Source: Marsupella aquatica (taxonomy: Eukaryota > Plantae > Marchantiophyta). Taken from it: DNA of 64,000 nucleotides. The notes beneath the pieces were generated by a model. The model searched no databases and was not told where the DNA came from. It worked only from the letters and a program-made list of their open reading frames with translations. Shown here in pieces: positions 10,973 through 57,653 of this stretch (the stretch's first letter is position 1; the number at the start of each line of letters is the position of its first letter). The stretch is from positions 16,185,137-16,249,136 of the forward strand of contig OZ316891.1 in assembly GCA_973895155.1 (NCBI GenBank). The letters are read 5' to 3'. The position numbers and the translations under genes were made by a program.

Positions 10973-11111
10973 TGTAGTTTGCTATAGAGAACCAAAAGAA
11001 CTCTTTTACGTCTCTAAACTCGGTATTCGTTCCCGTTAAGAACAAGATTGGGTTGGAAGGGTTTAATCTTAGCACTTAATCTTAGCTTTTCAAGTTTACT
11101 GTATATCCACA
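10973..11111 (-). repeat. Internally deleted 5' LTR of family B (139 bp)
   Basis: The two LTR ends are joined by a 15-nt filler, AAGGGTTTAATCTTA. Confidence 0.8.
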
Positions 11112-11780: not shown

Positions 11781-12744
11781 GGTGAACAAAAACAAAAACC
11801 GAGGGCTATAGCGTTTGAAAGAAGAAAAGTTCATGGTATTGTTCAGCTTATATCTGTCGAACCTGGGAATTTGACGTTAACCGATCTGTTTGTATACGAC
11901 ATAAAACATAGACGATGGAGGATCCGTTGGCACCATAAATGATTTTTGTTGTTTTTTCCCCGAGAAGTCTGGATGTCAGACACGAACATATTGCTAAAAA
12001 GATCACCAACCTTACTTAAACAGACCATAAGATATGACAAGGTATTGTCAAATTTTAGTAGCGCCCGGCGCTAACTAAAATACGCCACTAAAAATGTGTC
12101 TGAAATCTCGACATTCCAAACTAGCGCCCGACACTAGTATAGAATAAATTCCCTGAAAATGAACATTATCACCACATACCAGGTGGTAATTGGGAATAAA
12201 TGGTGCCTTCAAAGGATGGTTTTGATTGATTATGGATGATAAATGAACATTTATACTAGCGCCGGGCGCTAGTATTACATTTGAGAAATATTTCTCCGTA
12301 AACGATGTACTGAAGGATACTTTAATAAAATATGGGGGTGGAAAGGCCAAAATTTATGTCATAGCTCCTTCAAAAAAGACCTCTAAATTTCTTCCAGTTT
12401 ATACTAGCGCCGAGCGCTATTATAAGCATACTCTAAATTGTTCACCTTGATGGTCATCATTAATGCTAGCGCCTGGCGCTAGTATTGATATGATGTTAGG
12501 AAATGTCTTTAACGGTAACATTCAACGGTAACTTATGACTTCCGTGCGTGTTACGCATCTTCTACCGTTTGATTTTGGTAATTAAACCTTCCGTATACAG
12601 ACGTTGGAAACCGCCAAACATCAAAGCTAATGGCTTTCCTCTAGGTTATATCATCCTCCCGCTAGAATATATTACACGTTCAGAGATGATTATAGTTCCA
12701 TAATTTCATTGTACGATAGTTCGTACGCTTCTAGAAGGAAGACG

Positions 12745-15700
12745 ATGGAGGTATTCCCCTCTTCTTCCAGAGGGTATAGTGGGGTTCCTGACCAAGAGCG
12801 AGCTTATTCTGAATCTTCGCAGTCTTCGTTTACTGGTTCAGTCTATACACGTCGTGTAACTCGTTCCTCAAAGTTGTTGCCGCTCACTTCTGTCAGCGGT
12901 GTTTTGGGTCCAAATCCTTTGCGAAGAAAGATGGACAACGTAGACACAATTGCGATCCAGGATGTTGCGGATTGCGCGCTTGCTGAGACTGATCTCATTT
13001 CGAAACATGTCATGTCTTTTGGAAAGGATTCTCGTGGATTTGACAAGGAGCCGCCTCGAATCCCTCTGTGTCGATTGGTTCACATGGAGGTGGTTCGTAC
13101 TCTGCAGAAAGACAGCTCTTCCATCGAGAAGCTGAAAGACTCTTTTTGTAGTATGGGTTACAACTCTTCAATAGGGATGCATTTCTATGTGCAGCCAACG
13201 AATGAGAACGAAATTGTTCTGACCTGTACCCAGGACATTCGTGATTCATGGGATCCAATATGGCAATTGGAGAACAAGAAGTTTGAGGCTGAATGCGAGG
13301 CTGACCCGGATTTTCTCGTCTTCAAGGATAAGATGTTCTCTGTATTCGATGGAAATCACAGGCTGTACTCTTGGACGCTTGTAACAGAGGAGAACCCGGA
13401 CAATCCAAAATATCATCCTCGTGTGCTCTGTACAATATTTAAAGGAGACAAGGGATCTCTCATTGAAATTGAGGCAGCTATGCACACCGTGAATCAGTAA
13501 GTTCTCATGATTTCCAGTTCTTTCCTAAATCTTGCGAGTGCTGTATTTACTAGCGCTCGGCGCTGCTTATACATGAATTGTTTTTCATTGACTCTTACTC
13601 TCAACGTTTGTTCGTGTAGGCTTGGCCAAGCAGTTGTAGAGCCTTCCTGGATCCTGGATGCGGACAGAATCAAACAAATTCTGGCGCATGACCTTGAGTA
13701 TTACAGTAAACTGATTGACCTGGGTAATTTCAAGAAGTTTGAAAGCATTCGGCTGAAAACTCGGAAGGGGTCATGGTATACGAAGAAGATGCCACAAGAA
13801 GCACTTGTTTACATTCTTTGTACGTGAGAATAAGATAAAGTCGTACTCGCATCAATTCAAACTTGACATGGAGGCAGCGGAGGCTCAAGGGAGTCCATGG
13901 TCGGCGGAGGAGATTTCAAAACGGCATGCGGCCATGATGAAAGATGCAACCAAAGATTGGGCAGTGAAGTCTTCAAAAATTACGCCCTTATTAAGTCCTG
14001 AATTTGAAGATTTCCTCAGTACATGTGCAGAAATGTATGCTGTCACAGAGAGAAACAAGAGAGAGAAGAAGCCTGACACCGTTGTATGTACGATGGACCG
14101 CGCACGATTGTTCACCGCTGTTTCTGCTCTAGACCCAAAGTTATGAAGCACTTTACTTGTGGCACATTGCAATCCTGAGCTGCGGAGACAGTTTTTTCAC
14201 CCAGCAAGTGTTAACGATGATCCAGTCAAACAGTGGTGCCACACTTGGATCACTTGGAATAGTGTGGAGGGAATTGCTACTGGCATGTTACATTCATGTC
14301 TACGTAAAGTTGAGCAAACCATGCCCGCGAATAGATTGGAAGAGTGGAATTGTAGTTCGTTTGATGATCTAGTTCAGTTTGTTACAAATGAATTCAAGAG
14401 ATTTGGTGATTCCGTGAAGAATAAGTTCTTTCACACTATGTGGCCTTCAAAGTACCCTGACAAAGAAGATTACACCCAGAGAAACCAGAAGCGAGCGAAG
14501 AGGTTTGTGTATAGGTTCTACATGCACATGGAGGTAACCAAACCTGATTACTTCTGGGCATATCCTGCAGCTTTTATGAAGTGGATTTCAATAAGTGAAG
14601 ATGATGCCTTGGCTGATTTGTACTCTATGTACCCCACGGAGGGCATATTTCCTCCGAGACCAATGACAGAATGGGAGAGAACTCACTGCCCCTGGTATCT
14701 AGATACAAATAGATGGGATTCTCCTTTTGATCAAAGGGAAAAAGATGCCTTCCATAAGCTTTCAAAGTCTCAGATGCCAGCAAAACTTGTGTCCGACATG
14801 AAGCAGGGTCTACTTGACAATGTAGACAAGTCTGCCATAAACTTGCAAACTATCTGTGAAACAACTGTTGTGCATGTGGACCAGAGTCGCAAACCTCGTG
14901 CGAAAGCCAAAGCGGAGCTAGCAGCACCGAGCGAGTCTACTAAATCTGGAAAGAAGAGTAAGTATTGCTATCCATGATTTTGCCAGCCCCAGGCGCTGGC
15001 AAAAAATATTCTGTTGAGGGTATTCTCTTTCTTGGTTAGCGCCAGGCGCTAGCTTCTTTCAATACTTTAAAAGTACTTATTCTAACTACGACCTGGTTAT
15101 ATTTTAGGAGGGAGGAAGTCTAATACGGTGGGAACGGGAGATACGAAAAAGGATGCTACACCTGAAGTTTCCGAGGCAAACACGGGAGCTCGATCGGACC
15201 CCATTACTCCAGTCGATAGAGGGAAGGTTATAGTTCCTATCGACGCCACGAGTACCAAGAAGAAACGAAAGAGAGCTGTCGAAGGTGTCTCGCCATTGCA
15301 TGGTTGAGACAAGCCTTTCTGAATTTTTTGACTCGACGTTCAACAAGGAGGAGAAGCCCGAGTGGGTTAGTGATGTGGAGAAATGGGGAAAAGACCTCGT
15401 TAAGTTGGGATTTAAAGAGAAGGGAGTTGTTTGGGGGGGAAAAGTAACATCATTTGGAGTGGATGTCGGCTTCATTTACCTACCGACCGGGTTCAAACCA
15501 TCTATCATTCATAAGAAGGTTCCTAAATGGAACATTCCAGATCACTCAATGGCTAGATCTTTTTTCAAATCCATGGATCCATTTTTATCAAATGATGGGT
15601 TCCTTGTAATTCTACACAATGGGGAGTACGATCCCATGTCGCAAGTCATTGCTGCCTGTCAGGAGTCAAGGAAATTTCAGTGTATATGCTCGCATAATGT

Positions 15701-16727
15701 TGTGATGTTTGACCCGATGTATGCGGCAAAGACAGACCGAGAGATGTTTACCCTCAGGCTTGACATATTTGGCCGAATTAATGGGAAATGTAAAATTCCC
15801 AAAGACCCCAAATTTCGGCCGCTGTCCATCAGTGAGGACCCTTCGGTTACCAATTTGATCGGACTCTCTTCGCTCAAATCAGATCCATTCTCGCAAATGG
15901 AGTTTACTGGAAATGCTCGTTTGTCTGTGGGTTTTATGCAATCTGTTATAGAGCTTGTCACACGGCCTCGTGATATTTTTATGGATTGGACTGCTGGGTC
16001 TGGAGGCTCTTACATTGCTGGCGACTTATCTGGACGATTTGTACTCGGGATAGAACACCGGAAAGAATTTATTGAAACCGCTTCAAAGGTTTTCATGGAT
16101 TTGTTGTCTCCCAAAGAGATTGCAGTGTTACCTCCACCTGTTCCTACTGCCGACAGAAAAAAAAGAGATAAGCTTCGGTCGGTTCTCAATTTTGATTCTG
16201 ATGATAAATCGAGTGAAGGTGGAGAGGAACAAGGTACAAGAAACTCCAAGGAGGAAAAGGGAGAGCATCGTGCAGCTGCAGATGAAACCGATAGTGATGA
16301 CTCTTCCGAGTAATGTTCATAAACTCGTAAGCTTCTTTCTCCATTCCCGTCAATTCATAACATTTCTTTTGTTGTTTTGGGGAAAGGCGCCTTACAAAAT
16401 GGACTTTGTTATATCAGGTCAGAGTGGAATGCAAGGAGACGATTCAAACTGCGGAGGAAGATCGCGAGACACAACGTAGAAACACCAGAAAAACCGTTTG
16501 TTCTTCCCTCCTATGCAGAGAAAGCCGCAAGGAAAGTAGAAAGTGCAAGGACACTTTGCTGGGAAAACAAAGGTCTTCGGTTACGAAGGGGTGTTGACCG
16601 AAAGTTCATTAAACATCCTTATGTTGATGACTTCTCCCGCAGCCAGTACGTAAATGATGAGGCTGTGTCCACAGACAGATCCCAGAGTACAGATTCTGGT
16701 TCCGACTCAGAATCTTCGGAACCGTGA
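12745..16727 (+). pseudogene. Spliced ParB/Srx-like plus N4/N6 DNA methyltransferase-like fusion gene, copy 1 (4 exons; frameshifts and a stop)
   Basis: Exons 12745-13496, 13620-14957, 15108-16309 and 16418-16727 with GT-AG junctions shared with copy 2. Motifs FSVFDGNHR and FMDWTAGSGG...GRFVLGIE. Lesions near 13822, 14144 and 15285. Confidence 0.8.
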
Positions 16728-16989
16728 GAAGTAGTGGGTAGTTGAGGCTAAATCTTTTAGCAGCGCCCGGCGCTTGTAACATCTGTATTATTTCCCTCTG
16801 CTGAGGGTCCTTTTAAATTGTTGATTTCTCTCTACTTGTTGATTACTTTTGACTTCTGTTCTTTACAAGCGCCTGGCGCTCGCCAAATGGAATCTCTAAA
16901 TGGCCGTTTAGTCTTTGTTGTTTCCTGTCAACGGTCATCGTCATTGGATACCAACTGCCATTTGGATTATGTTCTTTAGTCAGTCATCG

Positions 16990-17370
16990 GAAAACCGTTG
17001 GGGACCATAGTTTTGGGACGATGATTCCATAGTTTAGGGACCGGGCGGAAGGGACGACTATAGTTTCAGTTTAGGTTTGTTTGGGACGACGAGAGTTGGG
17101 GACGTCGATAGTTGAGGACGACGATAGTTTTGGGAGGATGATAGAATGGGACGATAGAACGGGACGATAGAATGGGAGGGGAGACTTTGTTTCGGGATGA
17201 CGATAGAACATGACGATAGAACGGGATGATAGTTCATTTGGGAAGACTTTGTTTCGGGAAGACGATAGAATGGGATGTTAGAGCAGGGCGATAGAATGGG
17301 ACGATACCTGTTACCAAGGCGAAGATAGTTTCGGGAGGCAATAGAACGGGACGATGATAGTTTGATGGTC
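16990..17370 (+). repeat. Degenerate GGGACGATAG-like tandem array inside MULE copy 1
   Basis: Many gacgatag, gggacgatagaa and gatgatag units in about 380 bp; not seen in MULE copy 2. Confidence 0.7.
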
Positions 17371-19543
17371 GTTTCGGAACGGTAGTGTACGCGGACCTTT
17401 ATCTGGCATCTTAGTCTTCGTGGACCTTTCTTTGACCTTTGTCGGCTATAGCACTCGTGGACGACGTTCTTACGGGAGGAGAGGTTACATATTAGATCGG
17501 GATCTTTGAAACATGGCGAGTCAGTATGAGCCAATGGATTGGGAGGCAACTTTTCGTCCTTCTCGTGTGCGTCCGAAAGAGAGCCATTTCAGCTCTTTTG
17601 AATCGCGGATGGAGACTAAAGAAACTGAAACTTCCACTTTTTGGAACCGTCATGCTCTCCCGTATGATGAGGCTATTAGTCCTAGAGAGAAAAACATCCC
17701 TTGGATTGTCGATTCCCCTGCGCCTCCGTTCTCTAGTCGGTTTTCGTCTCACCCGGGAGTTCTTGTTGATGGGGTACTCCCAATCGATTGAAGAGTACAA
17801 GAAATGTTCGGGCGAGTTGATTTTAAGGACAGTAATATTCCTAATGAACATTTTACAAAGGCTGTTCGTCGAGGACCTTCAGAGGGATACGTTCATTTGC
17901 GTGGTCTTGGCTTCAAGAAAGATCGGCGGAGAGAAGCAGCAGGAGTGGATGATGATTGCAACTCGGAAAGCTAGATGGAAATTTTGTTTTGCTGATCGCT
18001 TTAAGCTAGCGCCGGGCGCTGCTAAAGTTTTCCGGATTTTGTGGCATTGAAGTCGACCTTAGCTCTGGCGTTAGGGTTTTCCCGGTTGTCTACTATTTAG
18101 GTTTTGGCTAGCGCCGGGCGCTATTGAAACGACAACGGATTTTGTGGGAGGGAATGGATCTTGACTATGTTGTCTGGGTTTGGACGCATCTTGTCTCCAA
18201 GAAACGACTAGTTTTCTAGTTAGTTTTTGGCTAGCGCCGAGCGCTGTTCATGTATTAGTCGAAAACCTCTGACGGTGTCGACCGTGACTTCATGGATGGG
18301 ATTTTTAGGCCAGATTGTTGATGTTGATAACTGCATTTTGTATCACTTAAGCCGAGCGCGTTTTCTATTTTGCGATAATATATGCGAATGTTTTTTCCGG
18401 CCTTTCTTTTCTACTTGTATTTGTCTTGGATTTTGTGTATCTCAATTGGCAGCCGTCTTTTATGTTTCAAAAAATTGTTTCCGTGTTGTTCTTTTATTTA
18501 TCACGAGGGTTTGGTGGTTTTGCTTTCTATTCTTGTACTTTCAAATGGAGATTTTGAGACCTTTTTTTAAGATCACTGTTCACGACCATCCAAACACTGT
18601 TCACTAGTAACAGCTCCTTTTAACTGGTACCAGAATCTGTTTCCTGTTACTGTTATCTGTTTGCTATCGTTTGTAAATTCCCCGAGTGGGCAGGGCGGGC
18701 GCTGATCTCCAAGTTTAGACTAAGGATCAGGACCAGGAGATGGCCCTGACACTTAGATTAGTGGGATTGCGGATCCACGAGTGAGGGCGACACTTGTGCT
18801 CTTGCCTCGCTGTACATAGGTAGATTATAGTTAGGTAGATTACAGTAAGTAGATTAGGCTTACGCTGCAAGGAATCAGGCAGATCCACAACCAGGATAAG
18901 TACCTGGGCTGCGGGGAGTTAAGGGCCTCTTCTTTAGCAAGTTTTTAGTTGCACCAGCAGGGCTGGGATCAAGTAGTAAGAGAAGCTCTCGGTTAGTTAT
19001 ATAGTGACCCTTGTGTATATTCATGTTTCCTCATACCTAAGAACTGAATAGAGTTGGCCTCACGGCTTAGTTCGCAGAGCTTGTGTATCAGATGTACTGT
19101 TTGTATGGCAAGTGCAAGGTATAACTCAGTCAGAAGGAGTCATTTTGCTATTTGTGTGTCGCATTAACTTGTGTGAAGAGTGCCCACATCAATGAAGGGA
19201 AGTAGCAAGGGAGTGAGAGATGGATGTGTCGAGCTGAGAGAGGTCTTAGCGGCTTAACCAAGCCAAATTGGGGATCATTCCGGCGGCGAAATCCAAACAT
19301 ACCTAATGGAAGACCAGGAGAGGAATACAAGGGAGGGCCTAGAATAGGCCAGCTAAGTATCTCATGACCCGATGAAGGATTTGTCCAATATATGTGTGTA
19401 AAATGTTAATCGTAGTAGTAGAGGAGATTAGCAACGTCCCATGCCGCTAAGCCGCGGAAACGGCCTCGTCAAGAACAAAACCTGCGGGAATCGGCTTGTG
19501 CGGGGGGGTTTCTTGGGTTTGGGGCGCCATGGGACGCACCACA

Positions 19544-20767
19544 AAATGCTTCTATCCAAGTTTGCACCTTTTACTCTCCGGTTTCTATAACTGAAGAATT
19601 TATCCAAGGGCTCTTCCTTCTCCCCTTGGTTTTCCTCCGTTGATTTATGTTTGGCTGCTTCTATGATTTGCTTCTTCCCGTTCCCAGGTTGCTTCATTTG
19701 GGATCCTCCTCCTCCTTTTGTTGTTTCCTCTTCTGTGGCTGCACTCTTGCGCTTCCGATCATCAGTCGTGCCTGATTTTCCCATCATTAGCTGTGGTTTA
19801 CTCCTCTGTACCCGTGTGGTCATTCTCTTTAGTTGTTCCCCGATCAGAACCTGAAAATGTGACTCAATTTTTGCTGGTAGATAGCTTCTGGTTGCGATAA
19901 GTTTCTTTGCTTGTTTAAGTGCTGAATGAAAGCCCTCGTGGAAAAATGACGCCCAATTCTTTTGTTTACCATCGCCCTCCTCCATGATCTTTATCATGAA
20001 CCGTGGGTACTCCGACCTTGGGCGCTTCCAGTGCAAAGCATGAGTCACAAACTCTAATCTTTCCTTGATCTTATCATCGGTGCACTGTTGCGTCTGGTAG
20101 CCTCTGGTATCGTCTACTTCTTTGTGTTGGGGAAACGAAGCCGACTGCCAATTTTCCCCATCCTTTTCTTGATTTCGGCTCCTCTGGTTGGCAACTTGAA
20201 TAGTTCTTGCAGCGTTCCCTGGTCAATCTTGATTGGTTTTCCCCTGCAGTGCCCCTGATTTCCTGAAGCCGTCCATGTGTTTATGAACTCATTGTAATCT
20301 TTTGATTCCAGATCGGTGGTCGTTGCCCATTCCAAATAAACAAACTCTTCGAGTCCTTGATTTCTCAAGAACTGTTTATGACTATCGCTCCTCATGTTCT
20401 CCAGTATGTGTGGTTCCATCCCTTCGAACTTGAGTACATGCTTCCCCGTGTTGCGATCTTTCTTTACTTGCTTTTTGTTTCCACGCTTTGCAACCAACTC
20501 CTCTTCTTCCTTCGTAGATTCCCCTTCAGTTTCCTCTTCCTTTGATTCAATTACTTGCCTCTGCGCTTTACCCTTAATCGTTTTGGCTTGCCTCAATCCT
20601 AACCTCTTGGAAATTGTCATTTTGACGTTGGGTGGTGTGTCTTTGCTAACTACCACAATCTCCACATCTACATCTGCTCCTTCGATCAAGTTGTCTATCT
20701 CCGCCTCTGGTTCCAATTCCTTCACCTTCTGTTTCTCCTTGTTACTCGTTAATAGTTTCTCATCCAT
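19544..20767 (-). pseudogene. Family E accessory ORF with the shared GLE.F..L.W domain
   Basis: NQGLEEFVYLEW...EFINTW...RGKPIKIDQGTLQELFKLP...KNWASFF. Confidence 0.6.
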
Positions 20768-22036
20768 ACCATCTGATTATTCTTCATCGTCTCCTTCCTG
20801 TGATTTGACTCGCTTTCCTTCTCTTAAAAGTATTTTTTGTTGTATGATCGCTTCCTGCAAGTCTACAGGCTGGTCCTCCTATATCGGTGTTGCTTCCTCG
20901 AGTCTTTGATCCTCCGGTTCTTGCTCTTCAGTCAGTTTCTCCCCTTCTTCATAACCCTCTGTCTCTTCCATCCCTGTGGAACACTCCCTTCCTCGCGTTC
21001 GATAGCTTTCGCATCAAAATCTTCTTGTGAGTTACTTCCTTCCATTGCTGGCGTTTCCAATAACTCAGCCACTGTCAACTTCTTCCGGGGGTTATCGTCT
21101 CCAAACAATCCTAACCTCTTCAACGTGATCATCTTCATTTTCACCGGTAACAAATAACGATTAGCGCCAATTCTAGTCCACTTGAACTTCAGCTCTCTCT
21201 GATACCCACTCCACTCCGCTGTTGCTCTCAACTTCTTGGCTAGGTGTAAGTAAGGTCTCTAATTTAGTAATGCTCTTATAGTTGCCAAAGTCTCACTCCT
21301 CTTCCCTTTCGCCCAACTTCCATGCATTTTCAACAAAACATGCAACTTCCTTGTTAATTGATTCTCAATACAGGGAACAACATTGTGTTTGAGTACGGTA
21401 TCTGTGGCTATCCATGTTGAAGTATACCCGTTTGTGTGGCCTATAACCACCGCTTGATAGGGAAACGACTTTCTTCTTTCTTCCCGCCAATTGGTCGCTA
21501 AACACGTACCTCCAGTCATTAACGTGAAAAATCTCATACAAATCCTCTTTAGATAGTGTAATCGACTATATCTGATACGGTTGGATATGAATTGAGGTTT
21601 TTAAACCCAATGTCGGCTCATTTATGTACCTTACCACTTCCTCATTTTTTCCGTCCGGTTTCTTTCCAGTTAATCGTCGTGTCTCTTCGTATGATCGTAA
21701 CCATTCTACAATTTGTGCTGTCATACCCTTCGCCTTCCTTTCGTGTGATAGCTTCCTTTTCCTATTTCTATCCTTTACCTCTTGATTAGTGATAGTCACG
21801 CTAGCTACCATACAATTACTTAATTCGTCCTTTTGTCATTTTGTGAAGGAACCTTCCGTCTTATCTTTGGAATAACCCATAGAATCAGTTGTGATGATTA
21901 ATGTTCGTACAATTTCCCTGTCGTCCTCCTCATTGTGATTATTGACGACACCTTCCACCTCTCTTAAGTGAACATCATTCTTAACGTGATATGACTTGAG
22001 CTTGTTTTCGTTTACCAGCTGTCGCTCACTTCCGTC

Positions 22037-23505
22037 CTAACTAGTGATATCAAAAGTTCCATTTCCCCATACCTTGTGTACAATAAATGGTCCTTCCCAC
22101 TTAAGTTTTAATTTTCCTTTCTTTATACGAGCCCTTTTCTTACACCACAACACTAATTCTCCTTCATAGAATATTGTGATGTCTCTCTGTTCATCTATCC
22201 ATCTTTTCCGCTGCCCTTGTACATGTTCCAGATGTTCTTCTGCGTTTCTTCTCTTCTCTGTAAGCTCCATCAATTCTCTTAGTTGTTGGGTTAAACTTGG
22301 ATTTTTGTTAATATCATAATCTGTAGCCACTTGTAGACTTGGTAATTCATATTCTGATGGCATCCGAGCTTCTACTCTGAACATGAATTGAAATGGAGTA
22401 TGTCCTATGGTTACTTTATACGCTGTACGAAATGCCCATACGGCTGCTGGTAGTTGTACATCCTAGTCATTTTGCTGCTCATTAATCACTTTTCTTAAAA
22501 CATTCAGTAGAACTTTGTTCGTAGATTCTGCTTGCCCGTTGCATTGTGGATAATAAGGGGTTGAAAATTGATGGTTGATATGATAATTTTCCGTTAATTC
22601 CTGAATAGTGTTATTCAGAAAATGCGTACCTTGATCGCTTACTAACTCTCCGGGTAATCCATACCTTGTAATGATATTTTGATATAAAAACTTTGTAGTC
22701 ACCTTGGCTATATTTTTGCGAGTTGCTATTGCTTCCACCCATTTAGTGGTGTATTCTGTTGCTGCTAAAATGTAATGAATTTGGCTGAACTTGGAAGGTG
22801 GTGTTATCGTCCCAATAAAGTCTAATCCCCATTTCTGGAAAATATAAGGAGCAATAATAGGCCTGAACTCCATACTCTCTTTGATCGGCCCTGTACGTTG
22901 ACACAAATCACAAGTCTTAACAAATTCCCGGGTATCCTTGTGCATTGTTCTCCACCATCGTCCTTGTTGCAATATTTTCCTCAATGTGATCTTTGCACCA
23001 AAATGACCTCCTCCTAAACCTTCGTGAGCGATTACTAATGCTTCCTGCTTCTCATCTTCAGGAACTACTCTTCTGAGTATGTCATCGGGTCCTTTGTAAT
23101 AAAGTGTATGATTAATCAAAGTGTAAGGCTTAACCTTATATGCATATATTTTCCTTTCCTTATTGGATAATCCTTCTGGAAACTCAGCTGTTCGTAAATA
23201 TCTCTCTAAATTGGTTCCATCATCCAGAGTAACCAATTTTACCGGGTAGTTTTCCCTTTCCTCTTGGAATAATCCCATGTCAGGTAGTTGATCATCTTCT
23301 ACAGTGGATACTTCCCCTGATTCTAGTCTACTCAAATAATCTGGTATAACATGTGTTTTTCCTGGTTTGTAAATATTTGTGTAATCAAACTCAGCCAATA
23401 AAAGAATCCATCTAGCCATTCTTCCTGATAATTGAGGTTTGTTTACTAAGTTAACTAGAGCGTTGTGGTCTACGAAGAATACAAAACGGTTCCCTAACAA
23501 GTAGT
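22037..23505 (-). pseudogene. Gypsy RNase H C-terminus plus integrase
   Basis: HYLLG..F....DH.AL, RMARWILLLAEFD, HEGLGGGHFG...CDLC, WGLDFIG, VSDQG, NGQAESTN and W.GPF motifs; premature stops. Confidence 0.9.
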
Positions 23506-28363: not shown

Positions 28364-28560
28364 CGGTGCAAGGGCGCCGTTCCTTTTAGGGAGGGCGGAC
28401 GTGGAGGGAGGAGGCGTGAGTGGGCAGGGCGGGCGCGGATCTCCACGTTTAGGATTAGGATCAGAACCAGGAGCGGCCCTGACACTTAGCTTAGTGGGAT
28501 TGCGGTCCCACTGGTAGGAGCAACACTTGTGCTCCTGCCTTGCTGTACATAGGTAGATTC

Positions 28561-28700
28561 GGGCAAGTAGATTACTGTTAAGTAGATTAGGCCCAGGTAC
28601 TTATCCTGGTAGTGGATCCGCCATTCTTTGCATCGTAAGCCTAATCTACTTAACAGTAATCTACTTAACAGTAATCTACTTAACAGTAATCTACTTGCCC
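28561..28700. repeat. Fold-back inverted duplication with 16-bp tandem repeats inside family A copy 2
   Basis: Arm GGGCAAGTAGATTACTGTTAAGTAGATTAGGC and its reverse complement flank a segment that is inverted relative to copy 1 (about 18855-18910). Confidence 0.75.
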
Positions 28701-37686: not shown

Positions 37687-37688
37687 GG

Positions 37689-37990
37689 GGGGTATTTACA
37701 AACGACAGGAAACAGGAAACAGTAACAGGAAATAGTTACTGGTAACAGGAAATAGTTACTGGTAACAGGAAAGTGGGTGGTAATTTTTTGGGATTTTATT
37801 TTGGAAAATTTTTTTTTGGGGGAAAAAAAGTTTTCTTTGTTTTGGTTTGTCATCATTATATTGCTAGCGCCCGAAGCTAACAATAGCAGCGCTTGGCGCT
37901 CGGAAAAAAACCCATGATTTTAATTATTTTGAAAAATAAGACTTTAAATGGTACATTTTTAGATCATGTTTTTTACTGGTAACAGATTGT
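37689..37990. mobile_element. Orphan terminus of the ParB-MTase MULE family
   Basis: GGGGTATTTACAAACGACAGGAAACAG matches the family end; degenerate palindromes at 37865 and 37887. The right boundary is approximate. Confidence 0.7.
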
Positions 37991-45626: not shown

Positions 45627-46301
45627 ATGATTTGTGACTACTATCATCTGCTTTGTAGTCCTGTATGTCATTCCGAGTCTCGTTCTTTTATTGAATGGAT
45701 TTGTTTTTCTTCTCCGCAGGTGAAGTGCAAGGGCTGCCCGGAAAGTGTGAGTTGTCTTGAAAGTTTAGGCACATTAAGGTCTGGGATTCAGGTTCTTGGC
45801 GTCAATTGTCGTGTGAGTAGAAGTCCCAGTAGAAGTCAATCTATAAGCAATATGTCACGTGAGACAAAGGTCAATTCCATATGGACCCTTTCTGTGCAAG
45901 TCATAGGGGCATTTGTGTGCTCTGCGGTCGGATTGTGTACTGAAAATTTACTGTGGACTCTGTTGGGTTTGCTTAGCCAACTATTTCAATTTTTGCATGA
46001 AATTTTGGAGCGATTCATCGCTCTTGCGCATCCACCCCTAGAGATGGCTGATGTTGGGGGTGCAGAGACCCCTCATCCTGACATTGTCGGTCATGAAGCT
46101 TTGCCTCTGCAGAAGACTTCTGCACCGTTAGTTTCCCATTATTATGCAGTGTCTAGAGGCCGTAGGCCAGGCATATATGAATGTCACGAAGCCGCTGACA
46201 AACAAGTCCTAGGTTTTAGTGGGAATAGTCATAGGTCATTTAAGACTAGAGCACAAGCAGAGGATTGGCTAAAGACGCAGATCTTGGCCGGGTTGGCATA
46301 A
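45627..46301 (+). CDS. Small ORF or terminal exon with an RNase H1 hybrid-binding / caulimovirus viroplasmin-like domain
   Basis: YYAVSRGRRPGIYE......KQVLGFSGNSHRSFKTRAQAEDWL matches the HBD signature; several candidate splice sites upstream (43768-45719). Confidence 0.65.
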   Translation: MICDYYHLLCSPVCHSESRSFIEWICFSSPQVKCKGCPESVSCLESLGTLRSGIQVLGVNCRVSRSPSRSQSISNMSRETKVNSIWTLSVQVIGAFVCSAVGLCTENLLWTLLGLLSQLFQFLHEILERFIALAHPPLEMADVGGAETPHPDIVGHEALPLQKTSAPLVSHYYAVSRGRRPGIYECHEAADKQVLGFSGNSHRSFKTRAQAEDWLKTQILAGLA

Positions 46302-47540
46302 TTGTCAATGTAAGACTTGAGTTCATTTGAATACGAGACAAATTTGGAATTTCAGGTGATGCTGTGTGTTCTTGCATGCAACTGAAGGCCAACTTGACTC
46401 CCTTTCTTATGTTTTCCTCATGTGCACATATACCTACTCCTTGCGAGGTGTTTACAAAAGGCAGTAAACAGCAAACAGCAAAATATAACAGGAACTGGTA
46501 ACAGCAAAATTTCCTGTTTTGGGAGCACATTTCTCCTGGTATTGTGGCAAAATTTAAAAAATCCATTCCTAAAATACTGATAATTATGCAATGCCGAATA
46601 TTAGCGCCGGGAGTCTACAGGAAAAATAATCACAAACGCATCATGCCGAATACTAGCGCCGGGCGTTAAAACCCAAAATAATGACACATTAATCGCCCAA
46701 ACATGCCGAATACTAGAGCTGGCCGCTTCCAATTCTTTGTGCAAAAAATCACGAGAACCTAGGATTGATGTTCAGGCTGAGATCCAAGTAGAAACCAAAC
46801 ATTAATAATAGTCTAAGTTCAATATCAAAGCACAGAGATGTAGGACTTAACCAAGGTATCTGAGTCATAACTTCTAAAGGGAAATTGAAAGAAAAGAAAC
46901 CCGAGATTTTTTATTTAAGTGAAACATATTGTCCTCGGTGTACAAATATTTCTACTTAGGAACACTAAAGTTTCCAGAACAATTGTAACTAGCGCCAGGC
47001 GCTAACACTCCCGGTGGGTGCCTCCTCGTACAATGTCCTATCTCGAAGAGTGACATTCATCATCAATCCCAGAGTCCTGACAATCTGGATCTTGGTGGAA
47101 ACCATCTAATCGGAAGTTGACATATGCTCTCATGGGCCGTCGATAAACTGGCCTTCCATGGAATCGAGAAGGAGAAAAATGAGAGAAATGGACTTTGAAA
47201 GAAACAATAGTATGTCAATAAGGGGCTTGGATTTATCGTTATAGGTCCTCTTGTCGGTACCAGTCTTCGAGTGAAAGCCAAATGACACTAGGGCGGAAAC
47301 GACAAATATCAAACGGAAGCTTCCGACGTGTTTTTTGGGTAGCGGCGGGCGCCAATTAACCAAGCCGAGGAACCCACACAAAGGACGGTACTCAAGACCA
47401 CATTAACCATTGAATGGAAGGGGCAACATCCCTAAAACTCAATTCATTTTTAATAAATTCAATAGCGCCCGGCGCTAACAAAAACCAAGGGCATACTCGT
47501 ACAGTTGGGAGGAAGTTTGACCTGAGAGAGGAGAAAATTG

Positions 47541-50500
47541 CTACCCTTCAGAGTCAGATTCTGAGCTCTCATTCTGGGAGCTATGAGATCTGTCGGTTGA
47601 CTCTGCCTCATCATCAATATACTTGCTTCTAGAAACATCATCTACGTAGGGGTTCCTCATGAACTTCCTGTCTACTCCCCTAAGAAGCCTAAGTCCTTTT
47701 GTTTCCCAGCAGAGCGTTCTAAATTTCTCTACCTTCCTCGCGATGTTCTCAGCGTATGATGGCAACACAAACGGCTTCTCGGGAGTGATGATTACATTTC
47801 GAGCCACTTTCCTCCGGAGTTGAAACCATTTTCTTTGGTTCCATTCTGACCTGCTCAAAAGAGAAGCAGAAGAGAAAGAGGAAGTAAGTACTTAACCGAT
47901 AGAACTGGCGGAATTGAAGATTAGCCAACAATTGAAAGGATAAAGGAGCTTACGAGAGACAAAAATTACTCGGAAGACTCTTCGCTGTCCTCCGTTGACC
48001 CATCATGTCGGGTTTCCTCTTTCCTGCCGTCATTGACATCCTCAGGAACATCATCTTCTGGCGTCCCATCATCTTCGTCCGAATCAAAGTTGAGGACAGA
48101 TCTAAGTCTATCTTTCTTTTTTCGTCTGGTTATTTGAGGAGGGGGAGGTTGTGTCTCCAAAGGTTTGGGAGAAATGAGGTCCAAAAAAATCCTCGAAGCG
48201 GTCTCAACAAACTCCCAACGATTTTCTAACCCGATGACAAAACGGCCCGAGTAATCCCCAGCAATGAACGTACTACCTGAGCCGACGGTCCAATCAATTA
48301 CAAGATCCTTAGGTATTGTAAAGAGTTCATGGACAGTTTGCATAAAACCAACCGGCAGTCGGGAATTCCCAGTAAAATGGAGTTCAGGACAATGATCTTC
48401 CTTCAAAGATTGTAGCCCAATAAGGTTCGAGATTGAAGGATCTTCAGCGCTAGATAATGGCTTGAATCTTGGATCCTTTGGGACCTTTCCTTTAAAAGAA
48501 AATCGACAAAATATGTCCAGTCTAAGAGTGAAGACCTGCAAAAGTTGACGAACCAACTGGATTTCAAAAATCTTTTACTCATGAGAGAAGACCTCCTAAG
48601 AAAGAAAGAGTAGCCCGACATTTACCTGGACATCTGTCTTGGATCTGTACATTGGGACAGACATGAAAACGTTGTGCGTATTGATGCACATGAACTTCTT
48701 GGATTGCTGACATGCAGAAATGACCTGGGAAATCTGATCGTGGTCATCCGAGTATAAGATAGCGAGCATTCCGTCATCGGAAAGGAAAGGGTCCATCGCC
48801 CGAAAGAATGATTCGGCTGCTGTGTGATCTGTGCAATTCCATTTCGAGACCCGACGGTCAACAATTGTGGGTTTCAAACCAGTTGGGAGATAGATGAAAC
48901 CCGCATTCACCCCAAATGATCGTTCCTTCCCACCTCGAATGATTCCTTTATCTCTACACCCCGATTTGATCAAATCCTTACCCCACTTCTCAGCGTTTGA
49001 GACCCAATCTGGCTTCTCTTCCTTACTAATTGCACTATCAATAAATTCTGCCAAGCTTGATTCAACCATACAGTGTCTTCCGAGTTTGGTCTTGAAAGTC
49101 CCCACATCCCGTTGGATACCGGCCCCAGAAGCATTATCTCGCAAAGATTCCCAGACATCGACGGTCCTTTTCTTCTTCTTCTTTGTGCTTGTAGCATCCA
49201 CAGGAACTATAACCTTCCCCTTCTCAACAGGGGTGATGGGGTCTGGATTGGCACCAGTGTTGGCCTCAGAGACTTCTGGTGTTGCATCGACTTTTGTGTC
49301 ATCCGTGGCGGCATCAGATTTTCGACCACCTACCCAAAATGGTGTCAAGCACAGAAAGAGTGTTAGCGCCAGGCGCTGACCAAACACCCACATTAATTTT
49401 GGGAAATAAGACACATTAAACTCACGACACATGATAGCGCCAGGCGCTAACAAAGAAGGAAGTCGGAAAAAGGAGGTGTAGCTTACATTTTTTCCCAGAC
49501 TTGGCACTAGCACTTGCCACAGGGGCATCCGCCTTGGCTTTGGCTCTTGGTTTTCGGCTTCGATCAACATGAACCACTGTGGTTTTGCATTTTTTTTGCA
49601 ACTCAGTCATTGACGAGTTGACGTCCCCCTCAATTCCTTGCTTCATGTCGGAGACAAATTGTCTCGGAACTTGGGATTTAGACAGTTTATGGAAAGCATC
49701 CTTCTTAGTGTCGTCAAAAGGAGAATCCCATCTGTCGGTGTCAAGATACCAAGGGCAGTGAATTCTCTCCCACTCTGACAATTTCCTCGGTGGAAGTATA
49801 CCCTCAGCCGGATACATCGAATACAGTTCGGCCAAAATGTCTCCATCTGCGCAGATGACCCAATTCTGGAAAGCAGCTGGGTAAGCCCAAAAATAGTCAG
49901 GCTTCACAATCTCCATGTGCATGAAGAAACGATAGACATATCGTTTTGCTCGCTTTTGATTCTTGAGTGTGTAGTCTTCCTTGTCCGGGTACTTGGACAT
50001 CCACATCGTATTGAAAAACTTACCTTTCACTGCATCCCCAAATTTTTTGAAATCATTGCACACTATTTCAACGAGTGAATCATAAGACTCACACTTCCAT
50101 TCCTCCAATCGATTGGAAGGAATTATTTCACTGATTTGCTGGAGGGCAGTCTGCAGCATACCAATAGCAAATCCCTCCACGCTATTCCAAGTTTGCCAAG
50201 TGTGGCACCACTGCTTCACAGGGTCATCACTAACACTTTGTGGATGAAAGAACTGCTTCCTGAGCTTTGGCGTGCAATGCGCTACTAACAAAGTGCTCCT
50301 CAATTTGGGGTCAAGGGCAGAGACTGCTGTAAATAACCTGGCATGATCCATGGTACAGACAACCGCATCCGGTTTCTTCTCGCGTTTGTTCACCTCGGTC
50401 ATCGGATACATCTCAGCACAGGTTGTCATGAAGTCTTCAAACTCTGGACTCAACAAGAGAGTGATCTTTGAGACCTTGATCGCCCAATCCTTCGTTGCTT

Positions 50501-51657
50501 CTTTCATCATGACCGCATGTCGTTTGGATGTCTCTTCCTGAGACCAAGGATTTCCCTGAGCGGTAGCCGACTCCATGTCCATCTTGAATTGTCGAGAATA
50601 GGATTTAATCTTATTCTCGCATAAGATATACAGAAGTGCTTCTTGAGGCATTTTCTTGGAATACCACGATCCTTTGGAGTCTTCTGCATCACCTGCCCAA
50701 ACTTCTTGAAGTTTGCCCCATCGATGATTGATTTGTAGTATTCTAGATCGTTGGACAAAATCCTCTTAATTCGGTCTGCATCAAGTATCCAAGAAGGTTC
50801 CACCACGGCCTGTCCAAGTCTACAAAAGAATTTGTCAGTCAATAGCGCCAGGCGCTAGTAAAAACTACACTATAAAAGATAAGGATAAGTGAAATTCAAC
50901 AAGAGACTTACTGGTTCACAGTATGCATAGCCGCCTCAATCTCAATCAAAGATCCCTTTTCACCCTTGAAGATAGTACATTGCACACGCGGGTGATACTT
51001 GATATCTTCCGGATTTTCTTTCGTAATGATCGACCATGCGTAAAGTCGATGGTTACCATCAAAAACATAAAACATCTTATCTTGTAACACCATGAAGTCT
51101 GGATCGGCCGCACATTCAGCTTCAAACTTCTCGTTCTCGGCCACCAACATCGGGTCCCAGGAAGCTCGAATTTCTGGAGTACACGTCTGGACATTCCCAT
51201 TCGAATCTGTCGGCTGGACATAGAACAACATTCCGATTTTTGAGTTGTATCCTGTGCTACGAAAAGAGTCCTTCAACTTTTCAATTGAAGGACTTCCCTT
51301 CTGTAAGGTGCGGACAACTTCCATGTGAACCAAGCGGCACATTGGAATCCTTGGGGGGTCTTTGTCGTGCCCTCGAAAATCTTTGCCAAACACCATAACG
51401 TGCTTGGAGATAACGTCGAACATCGTCAGCGACATTTCTCCTCAATCTTCCACAGCGTATGTGTCGAGATCGTCCATCTTCGCTCTCCTGCTCTTCGAAA
51501 ATGTGACTACAGAGACTGTTTCGGGAGCTTGGGATGTTGTAGTCACTCGACGACTGTAAACAGATCCAGAAAACGAGCACTCGGATGTCTGCGAATGGAT
51601 CTGCTCTCTCTGCCCGTTAGCACTATACCCATGCGAGGTAGTGGGGAGAAGGTCCAT
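47541..51657 (-). pseudogene. Spliced ParB/Srx-like plus N4/N6 DNA methyltransferase-like fusion gene, copy 2 (5 exons, ~1,200 aa; two frameshifts)
   Basis: Exons 51657-50912, 50819-49487, 49329-48626, 48535-47970 and 47850-47541 (all GT-AG). Motifs FYVFDGNHR and VIDWTVGSGSTFIAGDYSGRFVIGLE. Frameshifts near 51440 and 50670. Confidence 0.82.
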
Positions 51658-52617
51658 GTTTCTCAGACACGAAGTGCTTCACGATCGTGATGAGTACCTC
51701 ATTCGTACCGTACTTCTTCTAGAGAATTCTTGCACGAAGAACCTCCGAAACGGAACCTAAATACAGCGGACAAGGGAGGGGGGGAGAGTATCATCTCTAA
51801 ACTATCCCCTTGCTACATTGATATCTATCTCTTGAGCGCCACTTGTCAATTCTGGATTAGTTGTTCGAATACCATTGGCATATCTTCGACGTTACGCGAC
51901 CTAACGTTACCGTTGAATATGACCGTTAAAGAACAGTTTGTTGAATTTAATATATATTCCTAGTTCAAATCTGATATTGGTCAATAGTAGCGCCAGGCGC
52001 TACTCAAAATCATCAGAATTTAAACCATAAAATTTCCCAAAGTTAGGTCAACATTCACCCTCAAGTATACAATAAAAAGCCAAATGAATACAATTTTTGA
52101 ATATTTTTCCATAAATGAATGTCATGATTACAGTTTTGGATTAGCGCCCGGCGCTAATATTAAATGGGCACATTTTGGTAATATTTTAGATAATATTAAA
52201 AAAATTAGCTACAAACATTTAGTATTTATTCTGAAACCCCGGATAAAACATTCCAGTTTTATACCATAATTTACGGTGTGTGTTTGAGTAGCGCCTGGCG
52301 CTACTCATATATTTCACCATTTTGGGTCCATGTTGAAGGTAGGATGTTTGAGTAGCGTCGGGCGCTACTCAATTAACATGATTTAATTAACATGATTATG
52401 CTCTTTGGAAACGGACATCTTAGGCTCATTAGTGTAAATGTTGTTGACATAACGACAAAAAACATTTATTGTGTCAGATGTGCTTTCGATCGGTAGTGTT
52501 TCTGTCGTATTATAACGGCTCTGACAAACGGATTATTCACTATGAATACCATTGTGTACATTCGAAGACGTCATTCATTATCGTGAACTGAGTGTTTTTG
52601 GGTTGGATGATCTTAAA

Positions 52618-55600
52618 ATGTCGAGGTCAATCGTTCTGACGCGTCCGTCTACCGGTGACCTTGTATCCATTCCATTGTCGGCCAATGACGTATACAAGCA
52701 AGTTAGTGAAAATTATCTCTGTGGGCGCTTTGGTTTGGATTTGAACGACATTGAGGACATTTTGGAGGAGGGAAATGGAGATGAAGCGTCTAATTTCACT
52801 TCTTCTTTTGATGTTGATGACGGGATTCGTTTTTGGCACCTGAATGCAGGAATTTGGTATTCTATTGTCATTCAAAAACCAGTCGCATCCGATCTCCCAT
52901 CTTCATCCAAACCCTTTGTTGATGTTGTCCTGCTTTCAGATAGCGATGATGATGGACCTGCTTTGCCTGAGCGTAGTGCTAAATCCCCTCACACCGTTGT
53001 TAAACAGGAGGTTACCCCTGTTAAACAAGAGGTTACAGCAGTTTTTACCAAAAATTCCATTGTGTATCGGAGAAGTGCAATGGATACCATTCTCAAGTCA
53101 ATTGGTTCCAGTGAAATCTCGAGGTTCATCGCGGCTGGGGACTTCTTCCATGAACAAGTTGACTGTTTGCCAAAGAAATACAATGGAAATATTGTATTCG
53201 AGTTGCCTCCTGCGACGACAGCTCTTTCGAAGGGGTCACGTCTACGCGACATGGACCAGTCAAAGGATTGCTACATGTGGACCAGAATATTTCCTACATC
53301 AGCTAATGTTCATCCCAAGAAATATTGGGAATTTGGTAAAGTAACGTGCACTGGTTCCATTGAGTGTAGGAATAATACGTGCGACTATTTTCAGCGAAAG
53401 AAAAGGAGGAACCAGAAGGCCTGGGGTGGAACCCCCAAACTTGGCGGGCAACATCGTGTTGGCTCCTTCATTGACGAAGGTGGAGTTGTTTGCCAATTTT
53501 GTGATCAAGTTCCGTTTTGTGTCCAATCCTGTCCAGCAAGGTTATTTTACATGTACCCCCAGGTTCTAGTTGACTCAGAAACCTGTACTCACATGTCCGG
53601 CTTGGCAATTCATATGGGGATCCACAACCATCCTTCAAGAAAGGTGTTTTCTCGGAGCGCAGAGAAGATTGTTGAGGAGGTTATCAAAAAGAAATTGGAA
53701 GGAAATCCAATTTTCACCCCTGCTGGTGTAAAAAATGTGGCGATAGGGTCCTTTGTAAAGTCCTTGTGTGAAAGTATGGAAGATATTCAAGATATTGAAG
53801 AAACAGAGATATTTGAGTCTCTCATGGTAGTTTCCACACCCCAGAAGTTTGCGTCCCTCTTTCGTAGTGTTAGACAGGACCAGAAAGGTCGAGGTGAACT
53901 AGATTTTCTTGTTCGGTATCAAAGAAATATCAACATGCCTTTCCTCCAAAGGTACCTCCTACCAGGTCAAGGATCTCAAGAAGACCGTCCTCACATATTC
54001 AAGATGACTTCGATCGGCCATGGATCAGGCGTCGATCTTTTGAGACAAATGCAACCTGGTGGAAGTCTCGAAGGTGCTTGGGTAAGTTTTGATGTGATGA
54101 AACGGCTTACAAAAGACTAGGTTACTTTTAGTGCGCATATTTATGATCACAACTATCGCGCTCTGTGTACCTTATTCACCTGCGAACTAAAAGCAGAGGA
54201 TACAGAGTCGTTTGAGAAGGCTTGGAGACTAATGATTGAGGTGTCCAAAGAGAATGGATTAGAAAATCCAATTATTCATGGATTCATGGCGGACAATGCT
54301 CAAGCTGGTTGGCTGGCAGTCCGAAATGTCTTTTTTGGAGGGCATCCAAACCCTGAGCGTGAGCGAACTGACGCATTCCATTTCTACCAAGCCTTCCATC
54401 GCCATTCGATTGAAGGAGTGATTGAAGATAGTCAAGCAGAGCATCGTAGGCTTTGGGATAAGATGCGAAATGCCCCCACGTTTGTAGAGGCTTACAGAAT
54501 TTCAAGGGAGATTGATTTGTGGTGGCAGTCGGGTAACTGTGTCCCCGGGAAGCTCCGGATGCTCCAGAGTTGGATTTCATGGTGGGTCGTCAGGTGGAGA
54601 CAATGGGGAAATTTTATTCGTTTGGTAAGTTAGTTTACTTTGCTTTCCGCTCTTTAGGTATTGCAGTGCTATATTCTCATTTCAAAATGTTTGTATCCAT
54701 ATTCAAATATTACAATACCATAGCATCCTTTAATACTAGCGCCTGGCGCTATCATTTATTCAAACTGTCATATGACACAATAGGACAAAATAAGTTGTCC
54801 CTTAATGTACAGTGCCAGTTTTGACTTCTAGGGACAGAGTCCACTTCACTAGCGCCCGACGCTAGTGTTTTCTTGTTCTGTAACAGACACTTTATTCTAT
54901 GTGATTGCAGAACAAGAGTGTCAAAGAAGGGGCTAAGATTCCTAATTGTACAGGATCAGAGTCCGTGCACGCAGGTATGAAAGCATGGGTAATGAAGAAA
55001 AAGGTTGGGCTCTTTGAGGCATGTGAAATGGACCAAAATCGAGCTATTTCTCAGGTTGCTGCTTACACTGCGTATCGAAAAGGGTTGCATAGAGGAAAAG
55101 GTCCCACAATTTGGGAACTCGCTTTCTGATCAGCGGACCAAGCAGGCTCCCCCAAGTTGTATGAAGACGCAATGAATATGCTACTGTCCTACGCTGCCGA
55201 GTTTGACTTGGAGAGACGTGCACCTCTCAATGGAGACGTTGTCACCAAGTCTTTGAAGAGGAAAGGACATGCATCTGGGAATATCTCGCCACAAGACTCC
55301 CATAGGCATGATAAAATCCTTGTCACCTCGCCCAATACTAGATCGATGAAAAGGAAGAATCTTAATTGCACGGCGTTTGATGCTATCCCTGGCCCCACGC
55401 CTCAAGTTGATCCTGTTGTTAATCTGTCTGGAAGTGACATATTGTGCGGTGGAGAAGATGTCGATTTCAATACCCCTCCTGCTCGAGACCGAACGCGTTC
55501 AACGAGGCTTCCCCAGACTGCTCCCTCCGTGCTTCAGCAACCGTTACAAGAGTGTCCTGTCCGTGAGACGGAGGTTGCTCTAGCTACATGGCAATTATGT

Positions 55601-56437
55601 CGAACTTCAAAATTTGGCGCTGGTCCTCAGTGCAACGGATCATTTTCCCGTAATTCTGAAAGAGATGAGTGTTGCAATCGCGTGAAAAAAGTTGGATTTC
55701 CCTCACCACATGGTGTTATCGGAATTGTTGTCAAAGGTCAATGGATTTTCAGGGGGGAACCCATAACCGAAATGATTTGGTTTTGCCCAAACAATACATG
55801 TTACAGAAGCCGCCCGCGTCGAGGTGTCTTGAATTTGCCCCCTTTCCCTGATGTTCTTCCCGTTTTGAAAGGGACAAATGTTTCGGAGGACGAGCTGCAA
55901 TATCTTCTTGACAACGGAATCTCCCTAGTGCACGGAAATGAACTTACAACTAGACCCCCGTCAGATTTTGATCTTCGAATCAATGTCAATATCTTTCCAG
56001 AACATGTGAATCTTCTCGAACCCAATGTTCGTCTCCGAAGCCGGAATGGGAGGAATACGGTTCCTCGGTCAAATCTTACCCAGGGTCACATGAACAGAAT
56101 TGCGTCTGCAAAAAAACAGACGATGTACATTCAGGGAGAGTGGGATGTTGCGATTGGGAATGCATGGGGAAAACAGTTTAAGGTGCAAACGCACGAAAAT
56201 ATGCGGACGCCAAATTGTTACTTTGTTCAAATTTGCATTTTCCCCACTTGCTCGTGTGAGGATTTCTACCGGCGACATTCCCGGAAACATTCATATATGC
56301 CTTGCAAACATTTGTATTGGATTTTCCTTACCGTTTTCAAACTAGACGTTGAGGAATCTACATTGACCAGCCAACCAATTCTCACTGTTGGAGAGGTTCG
56401 GCTCATATTAGAGAGGCAAAATGCTCATCGTTTATAG
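52618..56437 (+). pseudogene. Mutator/IS256-type DDE transposase (~1,180 aa) with an N-terminal Cys/His zinc domain and a C-terminal SWIM finger; two nonsense mutations
   Basis: Exons 52618-54624 and 54911-56437. Motifs SFDV..., FMADNAQA, DAFH, SESVH and CSCEDF...PCKH. In-frame TAG at 54118 and TGA at 55127. Confidence 0.85.
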
Positions 56438-57653
56438 CATGAATCATGATGATGTAGGTTGTATTATTGGTCCAAACGGTTATATTGATTTTGTCGTATG
56501 TCAATGGTATAGTGTTATTGATGTCGCGTCATGTTTTGTTAGCGCCAGGCGCTGGTAAATTTTTCGTCTGGGCTACACCGTTAAATGTCATTGTGTTGTG
56601 ATTTATGTTCTCAACGCCAACTATTTGTTTCCTTGAATAACAATAAGATAGCGCTAGGCGCTAGTCAATCCGTTGTTCACTTTTATTTTGGACCACATAA
56701 TGACATAAAGTTTTGGGTTGCGTTGATTTTGTATTATTTTCATATATTTTGTTGCCGATTGTGGTGGGACCTACCATTTTGTGCGCATTTCTTGACATTT
56801 TTATGTATGCTCCCCCTTGTTTGTGTTGGGATATAAGGTTCAATTATTATGTGGTTCAGCAATTCATTACAAGGTATCCTCCCTCACCGCAATGGACTAA
56901 CTCCAACTTCAACTGCTGATTGTGTGTTCTTTCCCTTGGTACAAGATGTTTTTTCCTGGTAACAGCATAAGGCAAACAGGAAAAGTATTTCCTGTTTTCC
57001 TGTTTGCTGTCTCCGTCGCTATACCCCTCCTTGCTTCCAAATGTCTTTGCCCAAGTCTATCGTTGCACACTATAACGACTTATTGATGTTGTGAAGTAAA
57101 TTTGTGTGCAGGTCTCTGAATCTGCCACCAGATTCCATATCCACCAGATTCCTTGGTCATCCACCTACATCAGGCAAGCAATGACCAAAACTTGGCGAGG
57201 TATGGTGATCACCCGTTCTATGAGGAGAGCAGAGGACACTCTAACCAGACGTGTACGTAGACTGTACAAGTTGATGGTTCGGGATGAAGTCCTCCCTAGA
57301 GGTCTAGGGGTCCTGTGCTACTACTGAGACATTGCCCCTGTCAGACATAGCAATCTGCCTCGAGCACTCCGACGCGTCCCAAGACCTAAACGTCTGCCCA
57401 TATACCTTCAATTTTGTGTGAAGACCGATGGAGTGCCTGACGCCTCCAAGGCTCAGCTTAATGCCTGTATTCATGAATTGACTGCAGAGTGCACTATCTG
57501 TTCCCAAGACCCGGCACTTGATGAGAATGCAAAGTTGAATCAGCTTGGTCGGATGGCCCGTTTCTGTTGTGTGGTTTATAATACACATCCTTGGGTGAAT
57601 CTGTCCATACCTTAGGATGGCCCCAATTTTCACGGTACGGTAGTTTAGGTTAC

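Follow-up and report, generated by a model that had tools for sequence, protein, structure and literature searches.

A 64,000-nt stretch of the genome of the liverwort Marsupella aquatica (contig OZ316891.1; hereafter the window, with position 1 its first letter) carries a 15-bp palindrome, TAGCGCCNGGCGCTA, that recurs in the non-coding DNA of a two-gene transposon. This palindrome feature is real and under selection. Our preferred reading, to which we assign a probability of roughly 0.55, is that the palindromes are conserved sites of a Mutator-like transposon and are bound by the product of its own second gene, the cargo gene, for recognition of the family and for expression against silencing.

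Palindromes in the non-coding DNA of a transposon

The window holds two copies and one orphan end of the element, with the following parts.

11281..18683: copy 1, internally deleted, inserted in a long terminal repeat (LTR); 8-bp duplication GAGTGGGC at 11273-11280 and 18684-18691
11523..11800, reverse strand: what is left of copy 1's transposase gene, its 5' part (tblastx to copy 2)
12745..16727, forward strand: cargo gene of copy 1 (exons 12745-13496, 13620-14957, 15108-16309, 16418-16727), no longer intact, with frameshifts and a stop
37688..37990: orphan cargo-side end, with copies of a terminal motif and two degenerate palindromes (37865, 37887)
46445..57026: copy 2, full-length and with both genes; its inverted ends are short and degenerate, and an 8-bp duplication, CTCCTTGC, flanks it (46437-46444 and 57027-57034)
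47541..51650, reverse strand: cargo gene of copy 2 (exons ~51650-50912, 50819-49487, 49329-48626, 48535-47970, 47850-47541), interrupted by one stop and one frameshift
52618..56437, forward strand: Mutator-like DDE transposase gene of copy 2 (exons 52618-54624, 54911-56437), with a C-terminal SWIM-like finger and two in-frame stops

Empty sites were found for both insertions: a related LTR at 28400-28445 has a single GAGTGGGC, and contigs from three of four sequencing runs join 46436 to 57027 with eight letters in common. In copy 2 the transposase and cargo genes are divergently transcribed, and copy 1 is without most of the transposase. The element ends are degenerate and G-rich, share a subterminal motif and have no long terminal inverted repeat (TIR). 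The family is multi-copy, with 2,323 aligned contigs of run X1 (656 of them less than 90% alike) covering 30 of 30 bins, a contig depth that is not a copy number.

Scored by mismatch count over the whole window, TAGCGCCNGGCGCTA gave 13 exact matches, 21 at up to one mismatch, 28 at up to two and 31 at up to three. Shuffled sequence is expected to give 0.03 at up to two mismatches and none of 100 shuffles reached 28, so chance from composition was rejected. Twelve of the 28 sites lie in copy 1, 15 in copy 2 and one in the orphan end (37865), whose second palindrome (37887) has three mismatches; the 45.7 kb outside the elements has none at this threshold. All 27 sites of the two copies are in non-coding DNA, which amounts to 6.9 kb against 11.1 kb of coding DNA (P = 6e-12 by length). 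At four mismatches the scan reaches background, with 11 matches outside the elements and one in transposase coding DNA (53554), and it also gives two plausible decayed sites by the end of copy 2 (46602, 46714). The match at 17279 (three mismatches, within a tandem repeat) probably arose by chance. A tandem-repeat artefact was rejected because no site at up to two mismatches falls within an array called by Tandem Repeats Finder (TRF). The sites are distributed as follows.

12059..12481: copy 1, divergent intergenic region, five sites (12059, 12122, 12257, 12405, 12467)
13551..15051: copy-1 cargo introns, intron 1 (13551) and intron 2 (14984, with three mismatches, and 15037)
16761..18246: five 3' of the cargo gene, copy 1 (16761, 16867, 18007, 18109, 18232)
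46654..47477: four 3' of the cargo gene, copy 2 (46654, 46990, 47340, 47463), plus the decayed 46602 and 46714
49364..50857: copy-2 cargo introns, intron 2 (49364, 49435) and intron 1 (50843)
51988..52367: copy 2, divergent intergenic region, four sites (51988, 52142, 52289, 52353)
54737..54864: two in the transposase intron (54625-54910)
56540..56663: two 3' of the transposase gene

A preliminary description of this DNA had claimed about 30 parS-like palindromes confined to non-coding DNA of the element and none in the other ~46 kb, and its picture was borne out in these respects, as it was for the counts per copy, the degenerate pair in the orphan end and the clusters of four to five sites in each divergent region. 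Its statement that homologous introns keep the same count also stands (one site in intron 1 and two in intron 2 of both copies). Other parts needed qualification. Among introns predicted from GT..AG borders and frame read-through, cargo introns 1 and 2 and the transposase intron carry sites, as claimed, but these make up only five of the eight; cargo intron 3, present in copy 2 only, and intron 4 of both copies have none. Sites do approach the termini, the closest lying 177-209 bp away and the range reaching 5 kb, but the outer 80 bp hold another motif. Inverted symmetry extends into the flanks at four sites, giving arms of 9-11 bp, but most of it arises because half-sites have a common flank preference; what symmetry is left after this is weak (uncorrected P = 0.017-0.26 across six window sizes). 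The site extends past the written 15-mer: 55 of the 56 half-sites have a purine at -2, and positions -3 to -6 are T-rich. Within the half-site the core AGCGC is nearly invariant and the inner CC tolerates T. Flanks are alike among 46602, 46654 and 46714 and between 52289 and 52353, and local duplication therefore spread some sites. Site 18007 sits inside a 184-aa stop-to-stop frame (17496-18050) with no Pfam match.

Selection on the sites, which had been suggested earlier, is supported by two comparisons. The cargo genes of copies 1 and 2 differ at 190 of 255 four-fold sites, that is, to saturation, and their proteins are 62-73% identical; despite this, both copies keep one site in intron 1 and two in intron 2. 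Across 52125-52385, family contigs from three runs gave 19 rows of substitutions and 3 of indels, which fall at 21 distinct places; none of these is inside the 45 bases of the three palindromes, and two directly adjoin one palindrome (P = 0.016 by the hypergeometric distribution, 0.030 when restricted to the part with better cover). This test covers one stretch, with related copies and with differences by contig ends left unlisted. The earlier account called the motif CG/CHG-rich and mostly retained despite expected methylation decay. Changes fall at CpG in only 2 of 56 half-sites, against 9 at the inner CC. Retention despite such decay is not demonstrated, because element DNA is not strongly CpG-depleted (observed/expected 0.97 and 0.74 in element non-coding DNA without motifs, 0.64 outside).

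Beyond the window, exact TAGCGCCNGGCGCTA occurs in 85 stretches of viral contigs, as single sites in all 80 listed. In prokaryote genomes a two-site pattern gave no match and an extended one-site pattern at least 120, which were scattered singles among the 80 matches listed. There is thus no sign of a bacterial array in the prokaryote genome scans.

Several further features of the element and its surroundings were observed. An abundant internal-deletion derivative in run X1 joins 47485 to 54730, each about 10 bases or less from a palindrome; it lacks the cargo gene along with the greater part of exon 1 of the transposase. Tandem repeats with an GACGATAG-containing unit (periods 13-62) occur at 17079-17306, in copy 1 only. 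Weak translated similarity between 17840-17965 and 47047-47172 (36% over 42 aa), 3' of the cargo gene in both copies, is possibly a small third gene or exon. An open frame just outside copy 2 (45573-46301) has an RNase H1 N-terminal (Cauli_VI) domain (E = 5e-14). Nested LTR retrotransposon copies occupy 1-11280, 18684-36000 and 57600-64000, with integrase-like and long accessory frames such as 24677-28363 (1,228 aa); copy 1 is inserted in the LTR of such a retrotransposon.

A cargo protein with a predicted ParB-type fold

The cargo protein, about 1,200 aa long, comprises in order a ParB-N domain, a predicted helix-turn-helix (HTH) region of ParB type, a helical domain and a degenerate beta-class methyltransferase. 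Its N-terminal region matches ParB-N, PadC and sulfiredoxin structures, has an Atlas ParB_N lead and carries a conserved Box II GxxR, present as DGNHR. The predicted model matches ParB, Noc and KorB, the HTH domain included, with KorB among the best structural matches, and this moderate structural evidence points to a ParB-type DNA-binding fold. Other searches gave less. When profiles were tested against 29 ParB proteins (sequence was obtained for 29 of 30 loci), the DNA-binding domain was not significant, nor was hhalign against N15 SopB alone. Foldseek against viral models returned nothing at E<=0.001, with five weak ParB-annotated rows among 50, and an Atlas search with the central region returned leads only, all below 0.9. 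Exon 1 had no tblastn match in plasmids, and its alignment had none in a PDB sequence search. Word-based protein searches with the window exons found no relatives; those used here were found by HMMER over representatives. Two metagenome scans aimed at the loci of such relatives yielded 81 and 31 pattern matches, none confirmed.

Both cargo copies have Pfam N6_N4_Mtase matches (E = 1.4e-6 and 3.7e-5). In a low-confidence model (pLDDT 45) the best fold matches of this region are CcrM and M1.HpyAVI, and the fold appears permuted, with motif IV before a motif I-like S-adenosylmethionine (SAM)-binding sequence that is kept. Motif IV reads D-[LMI]-P-[TS] in all 18 relatives in which the pattern was found (a count that leaves out P0053, whose pattern match falls in the central domain) and Y-L-P-T in both window copies. 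The catalytic form (D/N/S)PP(Y/F/W) is present in none of the 18 relatives and in neither window copy, and on sequence grounds the methyltransferase part looks non-catalytic.

ParB/parS, Noc/NBS and KorB/OB likewise combine an N-terminal ParB fold bearing GxxR with a following HTH-type domain (both folds being predicted in the cargo), and they have multiple palindromic sites of similar length on one replicon-like unit (PMC7383237, PMC11790492). The cargo differs from them in being eukaryotic, intron-containing and transposon-borne, with large insertions and additional domains, helical and methyltransferase-like. A C-terminal dimerisation domain was not recognised in it, and the element has no ParA gene: neither of the two recognisable genes of full-length copy 2 gave an ATPase match. 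ParABS partitioning was rejected on that ground. The label parS-like thus fits the form of the sites and their probable reader but not chromosome partitioning. The earlier suggestion of a dimeric element-encoded reader gains indirect support from the ParB/Noc/KorB-like model with its HTH and from a separate candidate end motif for the transposase.

Fusions of a ParB fold to a PF01555-type N6_N4 methyltransferase in one protein are known from phages and prophages (10.1101/2025.10.10.680097, PMC4738411) and are a possible origin of the cargo. The cargo is set apart from them by its length, its central HTH/helical region, its lost catalytic motif and its carriage by a plant DNA transposon; the available text of these two sources mentions no plant or transposon case. 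The exon-1 domain also resembles fungal proteins that bear DUF3723, which form its nearest Atlas clusters (scores 0.95-0.96, the recognition value just below the bar), and DUF3723 genes recur in eukaryotic mobile elements, the fungal Starships (10.1101/2021.12.13.472469). Starships, however, belong to a tyrosine recombinase class, with no palindrome array mentioned in the text available, and the cargo has no Pfam DUF3723 match.

Among side observations on the cargo gene, intron 3 (48536-48625) of copy 2 has no counterpart at ~15737-15741 of copy 1; between the subfamilies an intron was gained or lost. One Riccia cargo gene model (P0110) has two tandem ParB-N domains. Riccia sorocarpa has several cargo subfamilies that differ in putative recognition-helix residues (alignment columns of P0027 433-441) and form a ready set for comparing co-variation of site and protein.

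The transposase and a second motif, near the element ends

Both copies are flanked by 8-bp target site duplications, a length typical of hAT elements also and within the 8-11 bp range of Mutator-like elements (MULEs). The D...D...DxxH...E motifs of the transposase presumably follow the MULE pattern. A CxC...CxH arrangement lies in its C-terminus, with a Pfam SWIM E value of 0.73, below the cut-off. The transposase had no MULE profile match in Pfam and no sequence match in PDB. An 8-11 bp duplication, a MULE-type DDE domain, a SWIM finger, common but not universal, and long TIRs or, in non-TIR families, degenerate ends like those of this element are MULE features (PMC6446971). Membership of the element in Mutator/MULE is plausible, and it is unconfirmed because no MULE profile match was obtained.

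Each of the five element ends has a second motif, CTGGTAACAG, 32-79 bp away (at 11313, 11334, 11355, 18604, 18624, 37739, 37759, 46495 and 56956). It has the quasi-palindromic form CTG-N-TA-N-CAG (11313-11364, 18604-18633, 37739-37768, 46495-46504, 56956-56965). At up to one mismatch the motif has four matches elsewhere, namely outside the elements, in exon 1, at 17308 and in the orphan end 288 bp inward. This motif is likely the transposase site, being at the position expected of one:

11313..11364: first three CTGGTAACAG copies of copy 1, a candidate transposase site

A proposed role for the palindromes

That the cargo protein reads the palindromes is the best supported model, drawing on moderate structural evidence and on analogy, and we hold it to be fairly likely. 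A cargo dimer would read the two 7-bp half-sites and the purine/T-rich flank through its predicted HTH, as ParB and Noc read their palindromic sites (PMC7383237), and this reading would let it find all family members in trans. Sites would be tolerated in non-coding DNA only, and would therefore build up between the genes, within introns and in 3' regions. Judging by its conserved nucleotide-binding box, the cargo could load at many sites and spread along the ~10 kb of the element; ParB folds can bind ATP or GTP also (10.1101/2025.10.10.680097). Action as a sliding clamp is tentative. The methyltransferase fold may serve as a non-catalytic contact to DNA or to a modified base. The outcome would be activation or protection from silencing, because the site layout matches that of VANC21 targets (PMC5735166, PMC10398659); if the cargo is the reader, this analogy tips us towards such an outcome.

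VANDAL21/VANC21 and VANDAL6/VANC6 of Arabidopsis are also Mutator-like; their inverted ends are degenerate, they carry an accessory gene, and they have a short motif that is concentrated in intronic, intergenic and terminal non-coding DNA (PMC5735166, PMC10398659). Concentration of a family motif in element non-coding DNA is present within the window. We liken the element to VANDAL/VANC in its working, by inference and with no membership implied. VANC motifs are 9-bp, non-palindromic, arranged in same-orientation arrays in tandem repeats and fast in turnover (PMC5735166, PMC10398659), whereas here a 15-bp palindrome is mostly dispersed and stable across synonymous saturation, with only local two- or three-unit duplications. 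The cargo is set apart from VANC proteins by its ParB-like and methyltransferase fold matches, a distinction drawn on folds. AtMu1 of Arabidopsis offers another parallel, in that an element-encoded protein activates cognate Mutator copies sequence-specifically, but there binding is at TIRs and needs no accessory gene (10.64898/2026.08.24.746577).

Of the alternatives, the one that survives best, though unlikely, also has the cargo bind the sites, but acting there as a KorB-like repressor, or as a dosage control, on the divergent promoters of transposase and cargo rather than against silencing. The divergent intergenic regions hold 9 of the 27 sites, and KorB, one of the best structural matches, is a long-range silencer of promoters (PMC11790492). 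As a lead only, the KorB operator TTTAGC-G-GCTAAA has the same outer TAGC/GCTA and one central base (PMC11790492). Two thirds of the sites, however, fall within introns or in 3' regions, as has been reported for VANC targets. Next, and improbable, is that the palindromes are transposase-binding sites, extended subterminal or for self-activation, to which the cargo is unrelated. A MULE transposase alone can activate its own family (10.64898/2026.08.24.746577), palindromes occur within 177-550 bp of several ends, and the common 47485-54730 derivative retains both site-bearing ends. Yet most palindromes lie 0.5-5 kb from an end, CTGGTAACAG occupies the subterminal position at all five, the AtMu1 transposase peaks at TIRs (10.64898/2026.08.24.746577), and the predicted palindrome-reading fold belongs to the cargo.

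Less probable again is an active amino-methyltransferase that is guided by the sites or methylates them (as N4-methylcytosine, 4mC, or N6-methyladenine) and so marks the element. The cargo's Pfam and fold matches and its kept SAM-binding sequence would suit this, as would the use of a bacterial-type 4mC enzyme in a liverwort (10.1101/2021.02.12.428880), but we rejected it as the principal explanation because relatives and window copies lack the catalytic form of motif IV. Captured host transcription factor sites driving element expression would fit the clustering in the divergent promoter region but are very unlikely, given the absence of sites from 45.7 kb of flanking DNA and a specified 14-bp palindrome repeated ~15 times per element with a candidate reader encoded within. 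Last come RNA or single-strand DNA hairpins, or neutral products of the local duplication described above: 2 of 5 intronic stretches fold better than all 200 shuffles, a signal due to the palindromes themselves folding, but the letters beyond pairing are kept across saturated copies, palindromes are equally present in intergenic DNA, Rfam gave no match and the TRF arrays lack sites at up to two mismatches.

A ParB-methyltransferase cargo in a plant transposon was not found in the literature as partially covered; the supplements of the ParB survey could hold eukaryotic cases. Returning to the cargo as reader, a broader version, which we regard as doubtful, is that eukaryotic DNA transposons have adopted a nucleotide-gated clamp of ParB/parS type that loads at its own palindromes and spreads while the pseudo-methyltransferase shields the element from silencing; helix and site would diversify between subfamilies, and the module might recur with several transposase families. 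If the cargo reads the sites, the element would have arrived, independently of VANC, at a second way for a silenced transposon to recognise its own copies and free those alone, and that way would be built from a bacterial ParB/Noc/KorB-type protein. Loading and sliding would offer a concrete mechanism for the open question of how a short motif acts over a whole element. If true, this would extend sequence-specific ParB-type proteins into plant nuclei and place a ParB clamp on nuclear chromatin.

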